Positions 7,713 through 32,330 of a DNA stretch of 33,190 nt are shown one piece after another; within the stretch, counting starts at the first letter, position 1, and every line of letters begins with the position of its first letter. Source of the stretch: Candidatus Moraniibacteriota bacterium (GTDB lineage: Bacteria; Patescibacteriota; Minisyncoccia; JAHIHE01; JAGLIN01). The translations under genes and the position numbers were made by a program. The stretch spans positions 1 through 33,190 of the forward strand of contig DAOWHY010000015.1 of the NCBI GenBank assembly GCA_030641185.1, in the 5' to 3' direction. The notes beneath the pieces were generated by a model that was not told the DNA's origin, did no database searches, and saw nothing but the letters and a program-made list of their open reading frames with translations.

Positions 7713-7852
7713 TGTCATTGCGAGGAGCCTGAGTAAGCGTAGCGAACGAGAAGGCGACGAAGCAATCCCGTGACTATACTCTTTGTGCATAGTCACGGGA
7801 TTACTTCGTCATTCCGTTTCGCTATCGCTCAACTTCATTCCTCGCAATGACA
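7713..7852. repeat. TGTCATTGCGAGG-type nested palindromic element, copy 1
   Basis: Ends are TGTCATTGCGAGGA...TCCTCGCAATGACA. Inner arms are GACGAAGCAATCCCGTGACTAT / ATAGTCACGGGATTACTTCGTC. Confidence 0.85.
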
Positions 7853-9840: not shown

Positions 9841-9979
9841 TGTCATTGCGAGGAGCGAAATTATCCGAAGGATAATTGAGCGACGAAGCAATCCCGTAAT
9901 TAAATTCACTGCGCGTAGCTACGGGATTGCTTCGTCGCCTTCTCACTCACTGCGTTCGTTCAGGCTTCTCGCAATGACA
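9841..9979. repeat. TGTCATTGCGAGG-type nested palindromic element, copy 2
   Basis: Starts 1 nt after the GH1 stop. It has the same ends and the same GAAGCAATCCCG / CGGGATTGCTTCGTCG core. Confidence 0.85.
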
Positions 9980-12439: not shown

Positions 12440-12586
12440 TGTCATTGCGAGGAGCCCAAGTGAGCGTAGCGAACGAGAAGGCGATACCGTACTAAATACG
12501 GCACAAGCTCCGCAATCCCGTGATTAAATTCTTCGCGCATAGTTACGGGATTGCTTCGTCGCTCTGCGGAGCTCCTTGCAATGACA
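12440..12586. repeat. TGTCATTGCGAGG-type nested palindromic element, copy 3
   Basis: Same ends as copies 1 and 2. It carries an extra inner hairpin CCGTActaaaTACGG and AGCTCCGCA/TGCGGAGCT arms. Confidence 0.85.
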
Positions 12587-14817: not shown

Positions 14818-15978
14818 ATGGATGTTAAATTTGAACACTCAGATTTAAAACTTATTAATCCACCTTTTGAATCAAAACTAGCCGATCTTATTATTGAACT
14901 TGATTATTTGCGTAAAAAACCGCTTGGCGGAACAACTTATCCATCAACCTTTTTTCAGTTAAAGAAAATTTTTCACACTTTAGAAAGTATTGGATCTGCA
15001 CGGATTGAAGGCAATAGAACAACTATTGCTGAATTTATTGAAACAAAAATTGAAAAGAGAGAAACTAAAGATGAAAAAATTATTGAAATACAAAATATGG
15101 AAAAAGCCCTTGCTTTTATTGATGAAAATATTAACAAAACAATAATTAATAGAATATTTGTTAGTGAGCTCCATAAACAAGTCGTTAAAAATCTTACTCC
15201 TCCTCCAGATGGAGAAGGCAGTGAAAATCCAGGTTATTTTAGAAAAAAGAATGTGCGTATTACCAGATCAAATCATCTTCCGCCTGATATGTCCCAAGTG
15301 CCTGCCTATATGGATGAACTTTTTGCTTTTATAAACAAAGAGGATTCTTCAAAATACGATCTTCTTAAAACAGCTCTTGCTCATCATCGTTTTGCTTGGA
15401 CTCATCCTTTTGATAATGGCAACGGAAGAACAGTCAGACTGTTTACATATGCCATGTTGGTAAAACAGGGTTTTAATATCCATATTGGACGGATTATAAA
15501 TCCAACTGCTATTTTTTGCAATGATCGCGATAAATATTATAAATTTTTATCAAAAGCTGACACTGGGATACAAACTGATTTATTAAGTTGGTGCGAATAT
15601 GTTTTGGATGGTTTAAAAAATGAGATAGATAAAATAGATAAATTATTAGATTATAATTATTTATCTAAAAATATTCTATTACCAGCTATTAATTTTTCCC
15701 TAGAAAGAAAATTAATAACACCGCAAGAAGAAAAAATATTGAAAATTGTTATTAAAAAGCAAATTATTCAAGCAGGAGATATTAGAAGTATTTTTCCTGG
15801 CAAAATTCCCGCGGAAGTTTCACGAACAATAAGAAAATTAAAAAATAAAGATATGTTAACGCCAGAGAAAGAAAAGTCAAGAAAATATGTGTTGCATTTT
15901 GAAAATAATTATCTCTTAAGAGGTATTATAGAAATGTTGGATAAAAATAATTTTCTTCCAGTTTCTAAAGATGAATAA
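14818..15978 (+). CDS. Fic family protein (class II-like, N-terminal inhibitory helix)
   Basis: HPFDNGNGRTVR at nt 15403-15438. SARIEG (S/TxxxE(G/N)) at nt 14995-15012. Confidence 0.9.
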   Translation: MDVKFEHSDLKLINPPFESKLADLIIELDYLRKKPLGGTTYPSTFFQLKKIFHTLESIGSARIEGNRTTIAEFIETKIEKRETKDEKIIEIQNMEKALAFIDENINKTIINRIFVSELHKQVVKNLTPPPDGEGSENPGYFRKKNVRITRSNHLPPDMSQVPAYMDELFAFINKEDSSKYDLLKTALAHHRFAWTHPFDNGNGRTVRLFTYAMLVKQGFNIHIGRIINPTAIFCNDRDKYYKFLSKADTGIQTDLLSWCEYVLDGLKNEIDKIDKLLDYNYLSKNILLPAINFSLERKLITPQEEKILKIVIKKQIIQAGDIRSIFPGKIPAEVSRTIRKLKNKDMLTPEKEKSRKYVLHFENNYLLRGIIEMLDKNNFLPVSKDE

Positions 15979-18460: not shown

Positions 18461-18662
18461 TGTCATCCTGAACTTGTTTCAGGATCTTCCAATTCTTACG
18501 ATAGTTTATCCTATAAATCATCAAACATTTTGACCGAAGCGAAAACATGATTACAATATAAAACAAAAAGACAGTTGTATCTACACTTTAGATGAAAGAT
18601 AATATTAAATAAGATAAATTAACCTAAAATATAAAAGATTCTGAAACAAGTTCAGAATGACA
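18461..18662. mobile_element. MITE-like element with 26-bp terminal inverted repeats
   Basis: TGTCATCCTGAACTTGTTTCAGGATC pairs with GATTCTGAAACAAGTTCAGAATGACA (24/26). An extra TGTCAT lies at 18442. Confidence 0.6.
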
Positions 18663-19184: not shown

Positions 19185-21608
19185 ATGAAAAAAAGTATTT
19201 ATCAAAAAAAGGGAAGTGTGATGTTTATTGCTTTTCTTCTTCTGTTGTCGTTAGTGTCTGGAGTTGAAGAATCTAAAGCCGTTGTTGATCAGAAAGTTTC
19301 TCCTTGCGATTCTTATGGAGATATAAATTTAGATGGCTATGTAACAGCGGCAGACTCGTCTTTGGCTGCTGATAATATTACGGGCAAAGTTTTTTTTGGA
19401 ACTTATGAAATAATTCTTGCTGATGTTAATTTTAATGGTCGTGTTGATATAGGCGATGTAGCCGCAATTGATTCTTTTGTTGCTGGCAGTATAACGACTT
19501 TTCCCGTATGTAGTAAAAGTATAAAAGTTATAAGCCCTAACGGCGGTCAGATCTTTGAAATAGGACAAGAAGTGGAAATTTCATTTACTAATTCATTAAC
19601 TGAAACAACTATTATCGCAATTACTGATAATTTAAAAACTACTTATGCCATAGGTTCAGCTAGCGGTAATTCTAATAATGCCATACAAAAAATGACTTGG
19701 AGCATTCCTTCAAATGTAGTTTTAGGGAATTATAAAATTTTGATAAAAGCGTTGCCTAGTTTTGGACATGTTATGGCTGGTCAGGATTATAGCGACAATT
19801 ATTTTCAAATTATTGGAAATAAAAAACCTCCTTGCGCTTCATATGGAGATTTAGATAATGACGGTTATGTGACAAATTTAGACGAGACTATGGCTGCTGA
19901 CGGTCTTAGCGGCAAGATAATTCTTAGCGAGTCTGAAGAAAGCCGTGCGGATGTCAATTATAATGGTCGTCTTGATATAGGAGATGTTGCGGCAATCGGT
20001 TCTTTTGCTACCTGTAATATTACAACTTTTCCTGTGTGCGCTACAAAATCAGTAAAAGTTATTAGTCCGAATGGCGGAGAGGTTGTTGATAACGAAAAAG
20101 AGATTTTATGGAGCACGAGTAATCTTGGCAGTGGAGTTTGTTCGATTTATTTGTATAATGCGATTGGCACTGAACAGGTAATAAAGACTATAATGCTTAA
20201 TCAACCTTCGTCTTATACCAGATACCAATGGAATTTAACAAGTGATTATACTGATGGAAAATATAAAATTAGCGTACAGTGTAGCGAGCACGGGAATTCC
20301 GCAGTTTATTCGGATAAGTCAGATAATTATTTTAGCATTATTAGGTCTGGTAAAGCTTCTGTGGATTTAATAGTAGAAAGTGTAAGAATTGATGAATATC
20401 ATAATACCATTGCAAAGATTAAAAATGTAGGCACAGTGGTTTATGACGCCTCTCTTTCTTATAATGACATATTTATTAATTGGAAAGATCTGACAAGCGG
20501 AAAAACTGGATCAATAAAGAATTATAGAATAGTAAATATTCCCGCGGGCGGCTCTGAGGAATTTATTATTACGAAAGATATTGTTGCCGAAGGAGAACAC
20601 AATCTTGAAATAACTGTTGATCCTGATAATGTTGTTATAGAATCTAACGAAAATAATAATGTAAGCAATCTTTCTGTTGTAATTTCTAGTAAAAAACTTC
20701 CAGATTTAGTAATAACAGGAATAGAAGTTAAAAAAGTAGTTGACCCGCATTTAGGCGAGGGTATTGATATCATTGCGCAAGTTAAAAATATAGGTGAAGG
20801 TTATTATATTTACGGTGATTCTAGGGTAGAAAAGTTTATAAGTTGGAGCGATTCAATTAGCGGCAAATCTGGCAGTATAGGAAATTATAAATTAATATCT
20901 ATTTTACCGGGAGAAACAAAAGAATATTCAATATATAGAACGGGGTTAGATCTTGAGTTTTATAATATTAGAATTATCGTAGATCCTGAAAATATTATTG
21001 AAGAATCTAATAATCAAAATAATACTTTCATTAAAAATAGCGCTATAAATAGTTGTCTAATAGATGGAACTCTAGTTAAGCTCCCTAATGATCCTAAAAT
21101 ATATGTAATAATAAATTGCAAGAGATATTGGGTTAAGACCGCGAAAGAATTTCAAAGAAGAGGATATAAATGGGAAAACATTAAAATTACAACTGATGAT
21201 GAATTAAACGCATTGCCAGAAGATTCTGGAAATGCTCAAGATATAAAAGAAGGAGCTATAATTAGAGCCAATGGCGATGTTGATATTTATATTGTAAAGT
21301 ATATAGGCAATAAAAAATTCAAAAGGCTTATTTTAAACCCTTCCGTATTCAGAAGTTATGGGCATCTAAGGTGGGAGGATGTCATAGGGGTAGAAAAAGA
21401 AACTGTAAATTCTTTTACGACTTCAAATTTAGTTCGCAACGCAAGAACCGGAAGAATATACAGATTAACCGCTAACGGAGATAACGGAATAAGAAGGCAC
21501 TTCAGAAGCATTAGCGTAATGCAAAGGCTAGGACACGATCTTGACGCTGTGTATGAAATAAATGAGACTGACGAGAGATCTTACGAACAAGGTGAGGATT
21601 TTAAATAG
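19185..21608 (+). CDS. Secreted multidomain surface protein
   Basis: Signal peptide, two DxNxDGxV...DVNxNGRxDIGD dockerin-like modules each followed by an Ig-like module (VKVISPNGG), two CARDB-like modules (NVG/NIG...VDP(D/E)N...ESNxxNN), and a C-terminal repeat domain. Confidence 0.85.
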   Translation: MKKSIYQKKGSVMFIAFLLLLSLVSGVEESKAVVDQKVSPCDSYGDINLDGYVTAADSSLAADNITGKVFFGTYEIILADVNFNGRVDIGDVAAIDSFVAGSITTFPVCSKSIKVISPNGGQIFEIGQEVEISFTNSLTETTIIAITDNLKTTYAIGSASGNSNNAIQKMTWSIPSNVVLGNYKILIKALPSFGHVMAGQDYSDNYFQIIGNKKPPCASYGDLDNDGYVTNLDETMAADGLSGKIILSESEESRADVNYNGRLDIGDVAAIGSFATCNITTFPVCATKSVKVISPNGGEVVDNEKEILWSTSNLGSGVCSIYLYNAIGTEQVIKTIMLNQPSSYTRYQWNLTSDYTDGKYKISVQCSEHGNSAVYSDKSDNYFSIIRSGKASVDLIVESVRIDEYHNTIAKIKNVGTVVYDASLSYNDIFINWKDLTSGKTGSIKNYRIVNIPAGGSEEFIITKDIVAEGEHNLEITVDPDNVVIESNENNNVSNLSVVISSKKLPDLVITGIEVKKVVDPHLGEGIDIIAQVKNIGEGYYIYGDSRVEKFISWSDSISGKSGSIGNYKLISILPGETKEYSIYRTGLDLEFYNIRIIVDPENIIEESNNQNNTFIKNSAINSCLIDGTLVKLPNDPKIYVIINCKRYWVKTAKEFQRRGYKWENIKITTDDELNALPEDSGNAQDIKEGAIIRANGDVDIYIVKYIGNKKFKRLILNPSVFRSYGHLRWEDVIGVEKETVNSFTTSNLVRNARTGRIYRLTANGDNGIRRHFRSISVMQRLGHDLDAVYEINETDERSYEQGEDFK

Positions 21609-21678
21609 TGACATTAAAGGCGCGATGAAAATTATCGCCGGGACCGCGAGGCAGATGGGAATAGAGGTGAAGGGATAG
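21607..21678 (+). pseudogene. Orphan duplicate of the rplK 3' end (last 23 codons plus stop)
   Basis: Encodes [23 protein letters not shown], against [23 protein letters not shown] at 19042-19113. Identity is 56/72 nt by hand alignment. Confidence 0.8.
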
Positions 21679-21723
21679 AAATCGCATGTTTAAAATTTAT
21701 TTAATAACCAACTAACAAAAAAT

Positions 21724-23563: not shown

Positions 23564-23701
23564 TGTCATCCCAGAATTTTTTTCTAAAAGCGAAGCTTTA
23601 GAAAAAAATGTCTGGGATCCAGTAAGTTTCATTTAATAAAATTATTACGATAAATATTATTTATTGAGATAAACTGGATTCCCGCCTCCGCAGGAATGAC
23701 A
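23564..23701. repeat. TGTCAT(C/T)CC-type nested palindromic element
   Basis: The left arm is TGTCATCCCAGA, then a 12-bp AT hairpin, then TCTGGGATCCAG. The right arm is CTGGATTCCCGCCTCCGCAGGAATGACA. Confidence 0.6.
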
Positions 23702-24212: not shown

Positions 24213-24710
24213 ATGCCCGAACAAAAAACAAAAAAATGCTGTAACTGCAAAGCGCCGTTTTTAATCTTTGCTTTATTTGTTTTAATTGTTGCGTTTTTTC
24301 TAAATACTAACATTACCAATGAAAATGGCGCGAATGTTGGCTTAAATACAGAGGTAAATGTTGAAAATAATATTGATGATAAGCAGGAAAAAGTAGATAA
24401 ACAAGTAAACGAGAAAAGCGAAGAAAAAGAAAATGTTATTTCTTATTCTTTTGACGCAAGCGATGAAGAAAGAACGGTTTTTTCCGGGCTTTTAAATTAT
24501 GGCGAAGAAAATAATATTGAAGTTGAATATAATAATGATTATGGTGAATACGGGGTTTTCGTAGAAAATATTGCCGGAATTAAAAACGGCGACGATGGGA
24601 AATATTGGCAGTATTATATAAATAATATTTTAGGCGATGTTGCGGCAGATAAAAAAGTTTTAGAAGAAGGAAATGAAGTAGAGTGGAGATTTGAGGAAGT
24701 GCCATTTTAG
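24213..24710 (+). CDS. DUF4430 domain protein, membrane anchored
   Basis: GKYWQYYINN...V..GNEVEWRF C-terminal pattern and an N-terminal TM helix. Confidence 0.7.
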   Translation: MPEQKTKKCCNCKAPFLIFALFVLIVAFFLNTNITNENGANVGLNTEVNVENNIDDKQEKVDKQVNEKSEEKENVISYSFDASDEERTVFSGLLNYGEENNIEVEYNNDYGEYGVFVENIAGIKNGDDGKYWQYYINNILGDVAADKKVLEEGNEVEWRFEEVPF

Positions 24711-24740
24711 GTGTATTTGTAATTATTTCAAATTATTAAA

Positions 24741-24845
24741 TGTCATTGCGAGAGAGCCGCAGCGACCGAAGCAATCCCGCAACTATGCACAAGGAGTTTA
24801 ATTTCGGGATTGCTTCGTCGCCCTTCGGGGCTCCTCGCAATGACA
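24741..24845. repeat. TGTCATTGCGAG-type nested palindromic element, copy 4 (short)
   Basis: TGTCATTGCGAGAG...CCGAAGCAATCCCG...CGGGATTGCTTCGTCG...CTCGCAATGACA. Confidence 0.85.
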
Positions 24846-24861
24846 GTGAAGTTCACAACTT

Positions 24862-25521
24862 ATGAACAAACTAAAAATCATCTCAGCAATACTTCTTATT
24901 TTCATCGGTGTAGCTGGTAGATTTATTCTGGTTGAATATGTCGGCATTCCTAATTTTGAAATAATCACCGCATTATCTTTGATCGCGGGAATATATTTGG
25001 GCGGGGTTTATATGATTATCGTCCCACTGGCAATAATATTTTTAAGCGACTTGGTAATCGGCAATAATTATATTTTTATTTTTACTTGGACAGCGTTTAT
25101 GTTTATTGGGTTGTTTGGATTTTTATTTAGAAAAAAAACTTGTCATTCCCATGAAAAAATTTGTCATTCCCGCACTGAAACAAAGTTCAGCATAAACTCC
25201 GGCGGGAATCCAGTAAACACGACTAATAGTAATTCTAAAAATTTTCCATTCAAAAATTCAATAAAATTAGCATTAATTTCTTCTATATTTTTCTACCTCT
25301 ACACCAACTTCGGCTGGTGGCTGATGTCGGGAATGTATGAGCATACTTTATCGGGACTAATAAGATGCTACTATATGGCAATTCCGTTTTTTAGAAATAA
25401 TTTAATGGGAAATTTGATTTTTGTGCCAATGGGGATTTATGTCGCTTCAAAAGCGGTTTATTGGGTTGAAAATAAAAATTGTAACTTATCTAAATGGAAA
25501 ATAAAACTCAAAACAAAATAG
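24862..25521 (+). CDS. Polytopic membrane protein (ECF S-component/DUF6580-like), interrupted by a repeat-derived loop
   Basis: Hydrophobic helices lie on both sides of a polar insert, TCHSHEKICHSRTETKFSINSGGNPV. The family call is tentative. Confidence 0.65.
   Translation: MNKLKIISAILLIFIGVAGRFILVEYVGIPNFEIITALSLIAGIYLGGVYMIIVPLAIIFLSDLVIGNNYIFIFTWTAFMFIGLFGFLFRKKTCHSHEKICHSRTETKFSINSGGNPVNTTNSNSKNFPFKNSIKLALISSIFFYLYTNFGWWLMSGMYEHTLSGLIRCYYMAIPFFRNNLMGNLIFVPMGIYVASKAVYWVENKNCNLSKWKIKLKTK
25141..25212. repeat. In-frame TGTCATTCCC...GGGAATCCAG palindromic element inside a CDS
   Basis: 72 nt, codon-aligned. TGTCATTCCC is duplicated at 25141 and 25162. The inner sequence CTGAAACAAAGTTCAG resembles the 18461-18662 arms. 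Confidence 0.7.
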
Positions 25522-26621
25522 GCGCTTTTCCTTCGCAGTATATAAAAAAAATGATGGAAAGCGGGGAAATAAAGAACGCTGATGAGAATAATCTTCAGCC
25601 GGCGAGTATTGATTTGAGCATTTCCGAAGAGGGCTATAGAATGAAAGGAGCGTTTTTGCCGAGAAAAAATGAAAGCGTTCGTGATATTATAAAAACAGAA
25701 TCTTTATATAAAATAGATTTAAATAATCCTTTGGAGAAAAATGGGATATATTTAATTAAATTGAATGAAAGTTTAAATCTGTCCGAAAATATATTCGCTT
25801 TTTCTTCTTCAAAAAGTTCTACGGGACGAGTTGACTTACAAACAAGATTAATGATTGATAATTATTCAAGATTTGACAGCGTTCCTTTTGGTTATAAAGG
25901 CGAATTATGGCTTCAGGTTATTCCGAAGTCATTTTTAATAAAATTAAATTATGGAGACAATCTAAACCAAATTAGATTTTTCAATGGCGAAGCAAAACTT
26001 AATTACGAGAAAATAAAAGAAGCTTACTTAAAATATAATCTTCTTTTTGATGAAAATTCAAATATTATAAATCCTGATCAGAAATCGGCGATAGATAATA
26101 ATGGTAGTATTGTGATGAGTATAGATCTTGATGGAGGAAAAAGCGATAAAATAATTGGTTATAAAAATTTATTAATTGACAGTGTTTTGGATTTTTCAAA
26201 AAAGAATTATCATAATCCGGTTGATTTTTTTGAACCGATTTATTCTCCAAAAAATGGCAAGCTAATTTTAGAAAAGGAATCTTTTTATATTTTTTCTACG
26301 AAAGAGCGGATTAGAATCCCTGACAATTTCGCTTCAGAGATGATCGCTTACGATATTTATAATGGGGAATTCCGAAGCCATTACGCTGGTTTTTTTGATC
26401 CGGGATTTGGCTATGGAAAAAACGGAGAGATTAAAGGAAGACAAGCGGTTTTAGAAATCAGATCTTATGAAAATAATTTCATCTTTCGGGACAATCAACC
26501 GATTTGCCGAATGAATTTTGAAAAACTGATAGAGCCAGCTGACTTTATCTATGGCGAAGAAATTGGTTCGCATTATGCAGAACAAACCGGACCGAAATTG
26601 AGTAAGCATTTTAAAAATTAA
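25494..26621 (+). CDS. dcd: Long-form 2'-deoxycytidine 5'-triphosphate deaminase
   Basis: The N-terminus GAFPSQYIKKMMESGEI...LQPASIDLS fits the long DCD family. It overlaps the upstream gene by 28 nt. Confidence 0.75.
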   Translation: MENKTQNKIGAFPSQYIKKMMESGEIKNADENNLQPASIDLSISEEGYRMKGAFLPRKNESVRDIIKTESLYKIDLNNPLEKNGIYLIKLNESLNLSENIFAFSSSKSSTGRVDLQTRLMIDNYSRFDSVPFGYKGELWLQVIPKSFLIKLNYGDNLNQIRFFNGEAKLNYEKIKEAYLKYNLLFDENSNIINPDQKSAIDNNGSIVMSIDLDGGKSDKIIGYKNLLIDSVLDFSKKNYHNPVDFFEPIYSPKNGKLILEKESFYIFSTKERIRIPDNFASEMIAYDIYNGEFRSHYAGFFDPGFGYGKNGEIKGRQAVLEIRSYENNFIFRDNQPICRMNFEKLIEPADFIYGEEIGSHYAEQTGPKLSKHFKN

Positions 26622-26682: not shown

Positions 26683-28191
26683 ATGAACGAAAAAATTAAA
26701 ACTAAATGGCCTGCTTATAAAGACAAGATGTTAGTTGCGGGTAATCAAAATAGCCAAGTAGCAATCTGTACTCTGTGGACAAAAAAGGAGTTAATGGCCG
26801 AGAAGTTAGACATGAATAAAATTTCCGTGATTGGAAATTTGTATTCTCCCAAGAGGGGAGTTAGTTTTTTAGTCAGGAATATTTTGGCAAATCCTAAAAT
26901 TAGATATCTGATTGTTTGCGGATTGGATAGGTCTGGCAGCGGACAAGTTTTGGTTGATCTTGCTAAAAATGGATTTAAAAAAAATGAAAGCAAAAAAAAT
27001 AGTAGAGACTATTGGCAAGCAATCAGCAATATTGAGAACAGGATAGATATTGAGATAGAGAGAAAGGCGCTGGAAACTTTTTGCAAATTCGTAGAAGTAA
27101 TAGACGCGCGGGAGGAAAAAGATCTTGGGAAAATTCAAAATGTAATTGATAATCTAAATCAAAATCTACCGTCTTTTATTCCAGATCCCTTGATTTTTCC
27201 GGATCCGCCCAAAGAAAAAACAAATATTTTTCCTGCTGAATCGTCCGCGCATGTTATTAGAGGAGAAAGAATTGCCGAGGTTTGGCTGAAAATTCTGGAT
27301 CATATCTTAAAATTTGGAATTACAGATCAAACTGCTTATCAGAATCAACAGAAAGAAATCATAGACATAATTTCTGTAATCTCAGACGAAGATCCTGATA
27401 ACTTATATATTCCGGGGTGGTTGCCAAATAATAGAGAACATCTAAAGAATTATCTGCCAACTATCTTAACGGGAAATTGTCCTACTGGAACTTCTTATAC
27501 TTATGGTTCCAGAATGCGAGATCATTTTGATGTTGATCAAGTTCAAAATGTGATTGACGAACTTAAGCAAGAGAAATATAGCCGCAGAGCAACAATTAGT
27601 CTTCTTGATCCAAGGATTGACACTAAAAGCAAAAATCCGCCCTGCTTAAACCATTGTTGGTTTAGAATTCAACAAAATAGATTATATCTAGTGTCCACTA
27701 TACGAAGCAACGATATGTTTGAAGCTTGGCCGGAAAATGCGTTTGGTTTAAGGATGTTGCAAAATTTAGTTTGGAAAGAGCTTTTGGGAACTTATTCCGA
27801 AATAAAACTTGGCAATCTTGAAATCCATTCTTTATCTGCTCATGCCTATGACGATTCGTGGGAAGAAGCAAAACAGACTGTGGAAAAGTATTATAATCAA
27901 GTTGTTCCGCATCCAAGAAATATTAGAGATCTGCGAGGAAACTTTATAATCAGGATTGAGAATAATGAAATTATCGTTGAACACTACTCGTCTGATGAAG
28001 TTTTGCTTAATGTCTATAAAAACAAAAAGGCAATGCCAATTTATTTTGAATTAAGCAGGAATGAAGCAATTTCTCTTGTTTCTCATGCTTTATATATCGG
28101 CACCGAATTGCAAAAAGCGGAGGTAGCAATAAAACTGGGAATTGAATACAAGCAAGACCAAGAATTAGATCCAAATACATTAAATTTATAA
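26683..28191 (+). CDS. MtrA-like/DUF4346 domain fused to thymidylate synthase (ThyA-like)
   Basis: SD AAAGGAG upstream. N-terminal AICTLW...ANPKIRYLIVCG. C-terminal PPCLNH (Cys321, nt 27643-27645), RSND and WPEN. Confidence 0.8.
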   Translation: MNEKIKTKWPAYKDKMLVAGNQNSQVAICTLWTKKELMAEKLDMNKISVIGNLYSPKRGVSFLVRNILANPKIRYLIVCGLDRSGSGQVLVDLAKNGFKKNESKKNSRDYWQAISNIENRIDIEIERKALETFCKFVEVIDAREEKDLGKIQNVIDNLNQNLPSFIPDPLIFPDPPKEKTNIFPAESSAHVIRGERIAEVWLKILDHILKFGITDQTAYQNQQKEIIDIISVISDEDPDNLYIPGWLPNNREHLKNYLPTILTGNCPTGTSYTYGSRMRDHFDVDQVQNVIDELKQEKYSRRATISLLDPRIDTKSKNPPCLNHCWFRIQQNRLYLVSTIRSNDMFEAWPENAFGLRMLQNLVWKELLGTYSEIKLGNLEIHSLSAHAYDDSWEEAKQTVEKYYNQVVPHPRNIRDLRGNFIIRIENNEIIVEHYSSDEVLLNVYKNKKAMPIYFELSRNEAISLVSHALYIGTELQKAEVAIKLGIEYKQDQELDPNTLNL

Positions 28192-28260
28192 GATCTTTTG
28201 ATATCTTATTTTTTTGTGATAAAATAAAAGTAAAGAATTTATGAAGTTTAATAAACAAAA

Positions 28261-28953
28261 ATGCTAAAAAATAAATTTAAAGGGAAACTTATTGTCATAG
28301 ATGGAATAGATGGAGCGGGGAAAGCGACACAGACAAAGATATTAATAAAGCATCTCAAAAAACTTAAATATAAAACAGCGACTTTGGATTTTCCGCAATA
28401 TTACAATAATTTTTTCGGAAAGACAATTGGCAGATTCTTAAACAATGAATTTGGCGACGCGCCAAAAACAAGCCCGTACTTAGCGTCAGTTTTGTATGCC
28501 GCGGATCGCTGGGAAGCGAAAAATAAAATTGAAAAATGGTTGAAAGAAGGAAAGATTGTGATTTTGGACAGATATTCTTCTTCAAATCAAATTCATCAGG
28601 GCGGCAAAATTTCAGATCCTAAAAAAAGAAAAGAGTTTTTAAATTGGCTGGAAGAGATGGAATTTAATGTTTTTAAAATTCCGAAACCCGATCTGATTAT
28701 TTTTCTTAATGTTCCGTATAAAATTTCCAAAAAATTGTTAACCAAAAAAGTTTCCCGAAATTATATTAAGAGCGCGAAAAATGACAAAGTAGAAAAAAGC
28801 CGCGTCTATCAAGAATCATCCTATTCACAATCGCTGAATTTGGTTAAAAAATATAACAATTGGGCAGAAATAAATTGTATCAGAAATAATGAATTATTAA
28901 GTCCAGAGGAAATAAGCGATTTAATTTGGAGTAAGCTTGGAAGATTTTTGTAG
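28261..28953 (+). CDS. tmk: Thymidylate kinase
   Basis: P-loop IDGIDGAGKATQ, DRY motif and LID-region lysines. Confidence 0.9.
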   Translation: MLKNKFKGKLIVIDGIDGAGKATQTKILIKHLKKLKYKTATLDFPQYYNNFFGKTIGRFLNNEFGDAPKTSPYLASVLYAADRWEAKNKIEKWLKEGKIVILDRYSSSNQIHQGGKISDPKKRKEFLNWLEEMEFNVFKIPKPDLIIFLNVPYKISKKLLTKKVSRNYIKSAKNDKVEKSRVYQESSYSQSLNLVKKYNNWAEINCIRNNELLSPEEISDLIWSKLGRFL

Positions 28954-31737: not shown

Positions 31738-32070
31738 ATGAGAAATTTAACATTCAATAAAATCTTTCGTCTTTTCTATCCAGCGCAATCGTCAGAAGAA
31801 ATAAGGGCGAAATATAATATTCCAGAAAAATTAAATATTCATGTTGAGCTTGTTAAAGATGGCTATTTTGTTTTGACTTGCAAAGAATTGCCTGGACTTA
31901 TTACAGAAGCAAAAGACGGCAAAGAGCTTATTTATATGTTTAACGATGCGGTGCTTACTTATTTTGATGTGCCTAAAAAAGTGGGGGATATTGTCCATCA
32001 GGAAATGAAAATTGACGGCTACGGCACTTTTGTATTACATGGAAATAATAAAGCATTACAGGAGGTTTAA
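31738..32070 (+). CDS. HicB-like antitoxin-fold protein
   Basis: YFVLTCKELPGLITEAKDGKELIYMFNDAVLTYF fits the HicB N-terminal (UPF0150) pattern. I saw no obvious DNA-binding tail. Confidence 0.6.
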   Translation: MRNLTFNKIFRLFYPAQSSEEIRAKYNIPEKLNIHVELVKDGYFVLTCKELPGLITEAKDGKELIYMFNDAVLTYFDVPKKVGDIVHQEMKIDGYGTFVLHGNNKALQEV

Positions 32071-32072
32071 AT

Positions 32073-32330
32073 ATGGGCAAAAATGATTTTAACAGAAGAA
32101 AGTGTATTAGGGCATTGAAAAAGTTGGGATTTGAAGAAAAGAGCAGCCGTCGCGGGAGCCACGACAAATTTGTAGTTCCTAAACGCTTTTTGAAAAATAG
32201 ACAATCGGATCAACCTCCTTTTATTATGATTCCCAGAAATAGAAATCTTCATTGCCAGTATGCGATAATTAGAGAGTTGTATAATTTTGGAGGAGATGAG
32301 TTGGTAAAAGATTTTTTGAAGAATATTTAA
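32073..32330 (+). CDS. hicA: HicA-like toxin (mRNA interferase family)
   Basis: ALKKLGFEEKSSRRGSHDKF core with the conserved GSH. Starts 2 nt after the upstream stop. Confidence 0.7.
   Translation: MGKNDFNRRKCIRALKKLGFEEKSSRRGSHDKFVVPKRFLKNRQSDQPPFIMIPRNRNLHCQYAIIRELYNFGGDELVKDFLKNI

Follow-up and report, generated by a model that had tools for sequence, protein, structure and literature searches.

We analysed a 33,190-nt stretch of DNA from a Candidatus Moraniibacteriota bacterium (contig DAOWHY010000015.1; hereafter the window), in which a palindromic block lies inside the reading frame of a 219-amino-acid (aa) polytopic membrane protein of the Pfam family DUF6580. Judged by its arms and flanks, this block is a copy of the hairpin repeat that comprises the Neisseria Transformation Sequence (NTS), which contains the dRS3 repeat, and the broader class of Ssn-related motifs (SRM). 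We consider it very probable that an NTS/SRM hairpin inserted in frame into a loop of the DUF6580 protein, was later elaborated there, and is now a translated loop constrained at the level of DNA. The identity of the element, its in-frame position, its absence from most orthologues, its place in a disordered loop of the protein model, its conservation at the nucleotide level and its recurrence in other genes of the Candidate Phyla Radiation (CPR) type are shown by the comparisons that follow.

Results

An NTS/SRM hairpin lies within the reading frame of a DUF6580 gene

Chenal et al. (2025) described the NTS as a 28-nt sequence, CGTCATTCCCGCGMAVGCGGGAATCYRG, that contains the dRS3 repeat, and defined the broader SRM class across bacteria (PMC11893778). 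The NTS is bound by SsnA, a 94-aa GIY-YIG nuclease that cuts a few nucleotides upstream of it, on single-stranded DNA (ssDNA) only and in one orientation (PMC11893778). We found the link to this family through a full-text literature search with GTCATTCCCGC. The arms of the window copy agree with the consensus CGTCATTCCCGCGMAVGCGGGAATCYRG at 23 of 24 positions; its loop does not match the consensus, with 28 nt in place of GMAV. One orthologue (locus L103) carries the unsplit form, TGTCATTCCCGCGAAGGCGGGAATCCAG, which agrees with the NTS consensus at 27 of 28 positions. The non-palindromic flanks are oriented as well: among the 14 orthologues that carry the element, GTC is present in all 14 and the 3' C in 13. 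An earlier, sequence-only reading of this DNA had assigned the block to a repeat family of the window. The motif does recur, but the family is NTS/SRM, with its dRS3-containing members, and is not specific to the window.

The host gene and the parts of the element are listed below.

24862..25521, plus strand: host gene, an open reading frame (ORF) of 219 aa; polytopic membrane protein, Pfam DUF6580
25141..25161, plus strand: 21-nt tandem copy of the NTS 5' half, TGTCATTCCCATGAAAAAATT; encodes CHSHEKI and lacks its own 3' partner arm
25162..25173, plus strand: NTS 5' arm and oriented flank, TGTCATTCCCGC; 11/12 against the NTS consensus CGTCATTCCCGC
25174..25201, plus strand: expanded apical loop, ACTGAAACAAAGTTCAGCATAAACTCCG; 28 nt against the normal 4
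25175-25190, plus strand: nested hairpin CTGAA/TTCAG, 5 bp, within the 28-nt loop; its core matches the 18461-18662 hairpins
25202..25213, plus strand: NTS 3' arm and oriented flank, GCGGGAATCCAG; 12/12 against the consensus GCGGGAATCYRG

Bases 25141-25212 are codon-aligned and free of stops and encode residues 94-117 of the host protein, CHSHEKICHSRTETKFSINSGGNP, so that the in-frame repeat block described in the sequence-only reading is real. The motif that it gave as duplicated, TGTCATTCCC, is indeed present exactly twice, at 25141 and 25162, and GCGGGAATCC is located at 25202-25211; by themselves, such short 10-mers are not significant against chance within the window. The element ends at 25213, and CATAAACTCC, which separates the inner hairpin from the 3' arm, was missing from that description. 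The tryptic peptide expected from the insert-bearing segment is FSINSGGNPVNTTNSNSK.

As ssDNA, the window copy is predicted to form an 8-bp stem (ATTCCCGC/GCGGGAAT) together with the nested hairpin, at -8.4 kcal/mol (z -2.65). The nested core, CTGAAACAAAGTTCAG (25175-25190), matches CTGAAACAAGTTCAG at 18468-18482 on the minus strand and at 18641-18655 on the plus strand, with 3 matches observed against 0.00 expected in 100 shuffles; the kinship of the inner hairpin with the 18461-18662 arms, also claimed beforehand, is confirmed by this count. On the same matches, the hairpins at 18461..18662 are the source-type of the nested core. Related genomes have the core too: it is matched upstream of their DUF6580 gene in L026, L027 and L030, and also in L007.

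The published SRM expression, HGTCWYN(0-2)YYVSBRHN(0-5)WNVSBRGN(0-2)RNCYNB, has zero matches anywhere in the window; an intergenic NTS copy at 23672-23701 fails it through a single stem mismatch. The expression is too strict for expanded loops, and we used a custom scan for GTCAT plus a hairpin in its place. A scan of the window against Rfam gave nothing at gathering thresholds.

The insert occupies a predicted disordered loop

The 219-aa protein matches DUF6580 (PF20221) with an E-value of 7e-31 and 108 bits, against a gathering cutoff of 27. In this match 186 residues of the protein align on just 142 profile positions, so that an insertion is already implied. An AlphaFold2 model built with a 40-sequence alignment (mean pLDDT 67.7) predicts six helices, at residues 3-26, 32-46, 50-66, 69-97, 129-156 and 163-218. 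Predicted confidence falls below 50 at residues 94-116 and 118-128, which are the insert plus its tail, and the sole long hydropathy minimum of the protein falls at the insert, between helices 69-97 and 129-156. The insert is thus predicted to form a disordered loop between the fourth and fifth transmembrane helices (TM4-TM5), and the loop position that had been expected from membrane topology is supported by pLDDT values below 50 over residues 94-128. Since Lys/Arg clusters are present at the N-terminus, in the TM4-TM5 loop and at the C-terminus, the positive-inside rule would place this loop probably in the cytoplasm.

The host protein may perhaps be a transporter, possibly resembling the S-component of an energy-coupling factor (ECF) transporter. 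A Foldseek search of the model against the PDB gave nothing significant, its best hit being an ECF S-component at an E-value of 1.9, and all fold matches of the model to ECF S-components and BtuM were non-significant. Beside rplK/rplA, the genes for DUF4430 and DUF6580 make up a conserved pair (window 24213-26621 and 26683-28953; also L026-L032 and L101-L104). Around the pair are genes of nucleotide metabolism (dCTP deaminase, thymidylate kinase, dCMP deaminase, HIT/NUDIX), and a 502-aa ORF at 26683-28191 is a fusion of MtrA-like, thymidylate-synthase and pterin-binding (DUF4346) parts.

Orthologues carry a series of NTS forms at one codon

We compared loop lengths between two anchors, FTW[TS]AF and TNFGW. 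The window protein has 79 aa between them. Among 49 metagenome loci, 43 gave both anchors, and in 39 of these 43 the distance is 46-50 aa; of 23 genome loci that gave both, 13 have 46-50 aa and the rest range up to 82. By this measure about 50 orthologues are free of any insert. The gap at the insert that an alignment of orthologues had been expected to reveal is therefore present. In an alignment of 40 homologues, the sole hypervariable region is the segment after "...FGYLxRKK", where ten minimal members have nothing.

All 14 orthologues with DNA that carry NTS forms have them at the same codon, in the same frame and in the same orientation. They make up the following series.

Simple hairpin: L027, L028, L004, L100-L103
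Expanded loop: L029, L001
Another nested hairpin, CCCGTAATAAGATACGGG, ahead of an unchanged spacer, ATAAACTCCG: L104
Expanded loop and an additional 5' half: window, L026, L032
Simple hairpin with two extra 5' halves (three 5' halves in all): L030

The extra 5' half is absent from L027, L028, L029 and L100-L103. Most of the 14 carriers share their flanking codons, AAA AAA ACN upstream and GTN AGY downstream.

A pair of near-identical proteins illustrates how the loop changes. P0026 (L101), which has the element, and P0047, which does not, are identical over residues 1-87 and, beyond about residue 126 of P0026, nearly so up to their ends; between these points they carry completely different loop cassettes, a patch of about 38 residues. 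The confinement of this patch to the loop region suggests that the cassette was replaced by recombination. Carriers and non-carriers are interleaved in a neighbour-joining tree of the core proteins, consistent with such cassette replacement, and the 14 orthologues combine NTS types and downstream loop types as a mosaic.

Other, unrelated palindromes occupy the same DUF6580 loop in other lineages (L012/L071, L013/L055, L003, L021, P0011 and P0016). Two cases are from distant orthologues. At L012:945-1094, and also in L071, a GTCAT-headed palindrome of about 100 nt, GTCATTGCGAGGAGC...CGCAATGAC, translates to VIARSRQQAATKQS...SFPLVARNDS. At L013:2201-2305, and also in L055, a GTCAT-headed palindrome, GTCATTCTGAGGGAGCGAAGCGACCGAAGAATC, encodes VILRERSDRRIS.

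These observations bear on whether a site-specific insertion hot spot exists, with the same codon hit independently many times. Interleaving in the core-protein tree, the presence of different palindrome families in the same loop of other lineages, and the young look of the arms, which are 94% identical to the consensus, would all fit recurrent insertion. We nevertheless regard it as unlikely. Orientation and frame are uniform in 14 of 14 carriers and the flanking codons are shared in most; 118 genomic copies show no target consensus in their flanks beyond a weak upstream pyrimidine bias, unlike the A-run found here; and the difference between P0026 and P0047 is wider than the element, pointing to recombinational replacement. 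We saw no evident direct repeat in the 6-nt flanks of the 14 in-gene copies; the exact junctions are not definable, because empty loops cannot be aligned. One insertion in an ancestor, and then recombinational spread or loss, would account for the series.

The same comparison speaks to a possible artefact or pseudogene, in which the ORF would have been mis-assembled across a repeat, or the gene would be in decay, and the extra segment would belong to no working protein. Repeats can yield chimeric metagenome assemblies; even so, we judge this explanation extremely improbable. The same in-frame arrangement is found in 14 contigs from varied samples and assemblies (NCBI, ENA, JGI and Logan), a full-length DUF6580 match spans the insert, and the 41 invariant columns that the host protein has in common with 39 homologues are kept on both sides of the insert, 41 of 41.

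The expanded-loop form was also considered as a repeat in its own right and rejected: its 18-mer CATTCCCGCACTGAAACA has 18 matches in 596 Gb, where about 17 are expected by chance.

The hairpin is conserved, not the peptide

The core proteins of the 14 carriers are 68-91% identical to the window protein. At identical core residues with four- or sixfold-degenerate codons, codon identity falls to 0.38-0.52 in the more distant carriers. Degenerate codons in the arms are nearly fixed: TCC in 12 of 13, GGG in 14 of 14 and CCA in 12 of 13. Their mean pairwise identity is 0.90, versus 0.47 over 47 core columns, and of 200,000 triples drawn at random from the core columns not one attained the value seen in the arms. 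The codon before GGG has C as its third base in all 14 carriers, with an amino acid that varies among G, D, N and C.

The 8-bp stem is likewise preserved, with 112 of 112 cells paired across the 14 carriers. In five sequences a compensatory change replaces a C:G pair by T:A, which turns Gly into Asp, and all six one-sided stem changes are C to T, so that a G-T wobble is kept. Taken with the third-position data, the stem changes show that what is conserved is the hairpin with its oriented GTCAT/C flanks, and not the peptide. This hairpin-level conservation within a reading frame is the unexpected feature of the element.

The sequence-only reading had proposed that the element was exapted as a loop. 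Its place in a disordered loop is supported by the model; exaptation finds no such support, conservation being at the nucleotide rather than the peptide level. In the case of exaptation, the Cys/His-rich peptide (CHSHEKICHSR...) would have been recruited to some function on the cytoplasmic side of the transporter, such as binding a metal or a cofactor or a regulatory task, and would be kept for that function. The duplications of the 5' half do multiply the C-H-S motif (two in the window, L026 and L032; three in L030), the NTS-coded peptide is the same in the window and L026 despite three synonymous differences, and the neighbouring DUF4430 gene and the weak cobalamin/ECF S-component fold matches hint at a cofactor transporter. 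A role for the peptide is, however, quite unlikely: the conserved positions are synonymous, GC-ending third positions; the residues coded by the hairpin loop vary freely (E/G/T and G/D/N/C); the compensatory change swaps Gly for Asp and keeps the base pair; the loop is predicted to be disordered; and most members of the family function without the element, including the very close relatives P0047, P0007 and P0012.

Conservation of the nucleic acid raises a different question, namely whether the element acts in situ as a functional DNA or RNA element: a site for recognition or restriction by Ssn that controls how incoming ssDNA recombines, a recombination junction that shuffles alleles, or an mRNA structure that affects translation of the downstream half. 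The nucleotide-level conservation of the arms and the stem-preserving changes favour such a role, as do the mosaic of NTS and loop types in the 14 orthologues, the cassette difference between P0026 and P0047, and the finding that in Neisseria the NTS and SsnA modulate integration of transforming DNA (PMC11893778). We consider it possible, if on the doubtful side. The element is missing from many orthologues, the CPR-related loci examined yielded no close Ssn homologue, and the arms could just as well have been made uniform by gene conversion from other copies. A function in mRNA structure is not favoured on energy alone, as the window copy folds unexceptionally as RNA (z -1.08).

NTS copies are widespread, and a few others lie in frame within genes

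At least 119 stretches of species-representative genomes contain the exact 29-mer TGTCATTCCCGCGRAGGCGGGAATCCAGT, which represents the unsplit form; with about 1e-5 expected by chance, the full motif lies far outside what chance would give. Among the matches listed are Proteobacteria, Planctomycetota, Chloroflexota, Nitrospirota, Cyanobacteria, Omnitrophota and others, with at least 19 CPR-labelled contigs; several metagenome-assembled genomes (MAGs) have 2-4 matches, and one exact NTS copy is in a Rickettsiales-labelled MAG (L209). Further intergenic NTS copies are present in related genomes (L002 and L051). The expectation that the motif would be repeated elsewhere is thus met with copies both between the genes of related genomes and across phyla.

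Most copies of the 29-mer are intergenic; among the matches listed, four lie in frame inside bona fide genes.

L125, 323-351: 3'-5' exonuclease domain of a Patescibacteria PolA (172 profile positions covered by 207 residues); peptide ...VSFPRRRESS...SARNDN...
L193, 7573-7601: Paceibacterota UvrA; peptide VIPAKAGIQ...LDSRLRGND
L202, 3333-3361: low-GC DNA pol III delta-type protein; peptide LCHSREGGNPV
L178, 100-128: DUF2298 membrane protein; peptide ICHSREGGNPV plus a second hairpin type

The hosts of these four copies are CPR or low-GC MAGs. Together they cover all three forward frames (SFPRRRESS, VIPAKAGIQ and CHSREGGNPV), and the forward NTS element is free of stops in all three. In about 550 kb around DUF6580 orthologues, a scan that allowed perfect or near-perfect stems and loops up to 60 nt found no GTCAT-plus-hairpin in long ORFs outside this loop. 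Given four other in-gene copies against none in that scan, in-gene copies appear to be recurrent but not rampant.

Small GIY-YIG genes adjoin NTS copies in some genomes

A GIY-YIG gene of the 96-aa class directly adjoins the NTS in L111, L118 and L168, and in L212 such a gene is about 360 nt from the NTS. This adjacency, in four non-CPR loci, reproduces the published association between Ssn and the repeat. On a CPR-like contig, L088:182-448 (minus strand) is an 88-aa GIY-YIG gene (Pfam E-value 3e-15) about 1 kb upstream of the DUF4430/DUF6580 pair. It is preceded by a hairpin with a 12-bp stem, ATTTCTAACGGG...CCCGTTAGAAAT; its product is 38% identical to the Ssn-like proteins over 65 aa, and hence distant. 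A Pfam scan of the window ORFs found no Y1 transposase or insertion sequence (IS). We infer that the repeat is mobilised or maintained through ssDNA in a process tied to an Ssn-type nuclease.

Other repeats and genes of the window

The intergenic repeats of the window are as follows.

23672..23701, minus strand: unsplit NTS copy, TGTCATTCCTGCGGAGGCGGGAATCCAGTT; intergenic; 26/28 against the NTS consensus; -7.1 kcal/mol, z -3.65
23564..23622, plus strand: hairpin of related type, TGTCATCCCAGA...TCTGGGATCCAG; intergenic; -17.5 kcal/mol, z -7.6
18461..18662, strand not assigned: inverted pair of GTCAT hairpins, TGTCATCCTGAACTTGTTTCAGGATC and TGTCATTCTGAACTTGTTTCAGAATC, between nusG and rplK
24741..24846, strand not assigned: nested palindrome TGTCATTGCGAG...CTCGCAATGACA, intergenic, directly upstream of the host gene

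The ends of the in-gene block had been likened to a single element at 23564-23701. This is correct for the right-hand 30 nt (23672-23701, minus strand), but the left end is a different hairpin; the latter, at 23564..23622, has an expanded loop with a nested hairpin, the same architecture as the in-gene copy. Nesting of this kind is seen in the intergenic elements of the window.

The palindrome upstream of the host gene belongs to a family of four intergenic nested palindromes of about 105-145 nt (24741-24846, 7713-7852, 9841-9979 and 12440-12586), with outer arms TGTCATTGCGAGGAGC...GCTCCTCGCAATGACA and an inner hairpin GCGACGAAGCAATCCCGT...ACGGGATTGCTTCGTCGC. Three of these four bracket genes for a glycosidase, EamA and CorA.

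Three further observations concern genes of the window. The last 22 codons of rplK (L11; 19042-19116) are repeated at 21607-21681 with 78% DNA identity, just after an 807-aa CARDB/dockerin ORF (19185-21608), which together with a 355-aa ORF separates rplK from rplA; the repeat looks like the scar of an insertion of about 2.5 kb that duplicated the 3' end of rplK. At 31738-32330, an 85-aa ORF with a weak match to HicA toxins (26.3 bits against the Pfam cutoff of 27 bits; E-value 8e-6) directly follows a 110-aa ORF without a family match, and the two may be a toxin-antitoxin pair of hicAB type. A 386-aa protein of the Fic/DOC family is encoded at 14818-15978 among housekeeping genes.

Discussion

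Our results point to an NTS that would have entered a permissive, probably cytoplasmic TM4-TM5 loop of the DUF6580 protein, in the sense orientation and in frame, in a sub-lineage of Parcubacteria/Paceibacterota-like CPR bacteria. As the forward element is free of stops in three frames, the insertion of about 30 nt could simply be read through, and would have added roughly 10 disordered residues (CHSR-x-x-GNPV). In the lineage of the window, a second hairpin module and spacer (24 nt) would then have been added in the apical loop, and the 5' half (21 nt) would have been tandemly duplicated in a slippage-type event, both in frame. The element would persist as a translated loop that is constrained as nucleic acid and not as peptide, and the loop region would behave as a cassette that is exchanged between alleles.

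Several points weigh against this account. The in-gene copy fails the published SRM expression because of its 28-nt loop, and just two NTS-type copies are present in the 33-kb window. No GIY-YIG or Ssn gene was found in the window by regular expression, tblastn or Pfam, and the CPR-related loci examined have no close Ssn homologue of the kind seen in L111, L118 and L168. No target-site duplication or defined insertion junction was identified. None of the 18 matches to CATTCCCGCACTGAAACA has the composite context, and the expanded form is found only in this gene; since it is not found outside the DUF6580 gene, the expanded-loop composite appears to be lineage-specific and not itself a mobile unit. 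The covariation comes from a single stem pair in related sequences, a statistic that is weak alone and that is supportive rather than decisive. The conservation of the arms could reflect gene conversion or recent recombinational spread instead of selection. Finally, translation of the element is deduced from the intact frames in 14 contigs.

A broader proposal is more tentative, and we rate it as somewhat unlikely: that CPR/Patescibacteria have "protein-coding hairpins", similar to Rickettsia palindromic elements (RPEs), which derive from the pan-bacterial NTS/Ssn repeats, reside in housekeeping genes of the DUF6580, PolA, UvrA and pol III delta types, and are kept by selection on the hairpin as DNA or RNA. 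CPR organisms are thought to rely on DNA uptake. In the same proposal, intragenic copies could be Ssn sites or recombination junctions that gate incoming ssDNA, with the peptide as a tolerated by-product.

The element matters in several respects. Its forms at one codon (empty, simple, expanded and half-duplicated) are a natural series in which the growth of hairpin repeats and their accommodation by proteins can be followed, and its nucleotide-level conservation raises the question of whether intragenic Ssn target sites function. Such inserts inflate loop variability and can mislead domain and alignment analyses; they also seed spurious small ORFs and "conserved" database peptides (CHSREGGNPV, SFPRRRESS and VIPAKAGIQ).

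Comparison with known systems

MITEs (miniature transposable elements with inverted repeats) such as Correia and ERIC are small non-autonomous repeats for which in-frame fusions with host ORFs are possible (PMC10969869), a likeness to the element described here; as differences, no terminal inverted repeats around a longer body were seen, no target-site duplication was detected and no cognate IS was found. With REP/BIME elements and their RAYT proteins (IS200/IS605-like Y1), and with Neisseria NIME, it shares short GC-rich ssDNA hairpins that form nested mosaics, and a spread that is hypothesised to proceed through a dedicated small nuclease or transposase. It differs from them in having a GTCAT and not a GTAG head and in being intragenic, whereas REPs are extragenic by definition; nor does the window have a Y1_Tnp match.

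The closest relatives are the NTS/SRM repeats themselves. Common to both are near-identical arms with oriented flanks (GTCATTCCCGC...GCGGGAATCCAG), the capacity to form hairpins, identical copies across many phyla and, in some genomes, a position beside small GIY-YIG genes. The published description concerns repeats that surround and flank genes, whereas the copy described here is inside a reading frame of a CPR bacterium; its loop, expanded to 28 nt against the normal 4, holds a nested hairpin, its 5' half is duplicated, and no ssn gene is seen nearby. In the paper that defines the family, a search for the terms in-frame, intragenic, "within coding", Patescibacteria and "Candidate" came up empty (PMC11893778), and a limited literature search gave no prior report of in-gene NTS copies or of palindromic repeats in CPR.

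In behaviour, the nearest parallel is with the RPEs, the "protein-coding palindromes" of Rickettsia (Ogata et al.), which are palindromes of about 100-150 bp that lie in frame within genes (summarised in PMC10969869). These RPEs and our element differ in size and host, as the latter has a 28-nt core (51-72 nt in this gene) and comes from CPR, and the likeness is one of behaviour; moreover, the window has one in-gene copy, and the other examples come from different genomes. The two have in common an in-frame palindrome in unrelated housekeeping genes, at positions compatible with fold and function, a reduced-genome, host-dependent bacterium, and a family that is also intergenic. The analogy with RPEs drawn in the sequence-only reading seems apt in this sense, as the repeat appears in frame without disrupting genes in DUF6580 and four others. 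In-frame palindromes, so far regarded as a peculiarity of Rickettsia, are now connected with the NTS/Ssn family, and both are extended to CPR bacteria.

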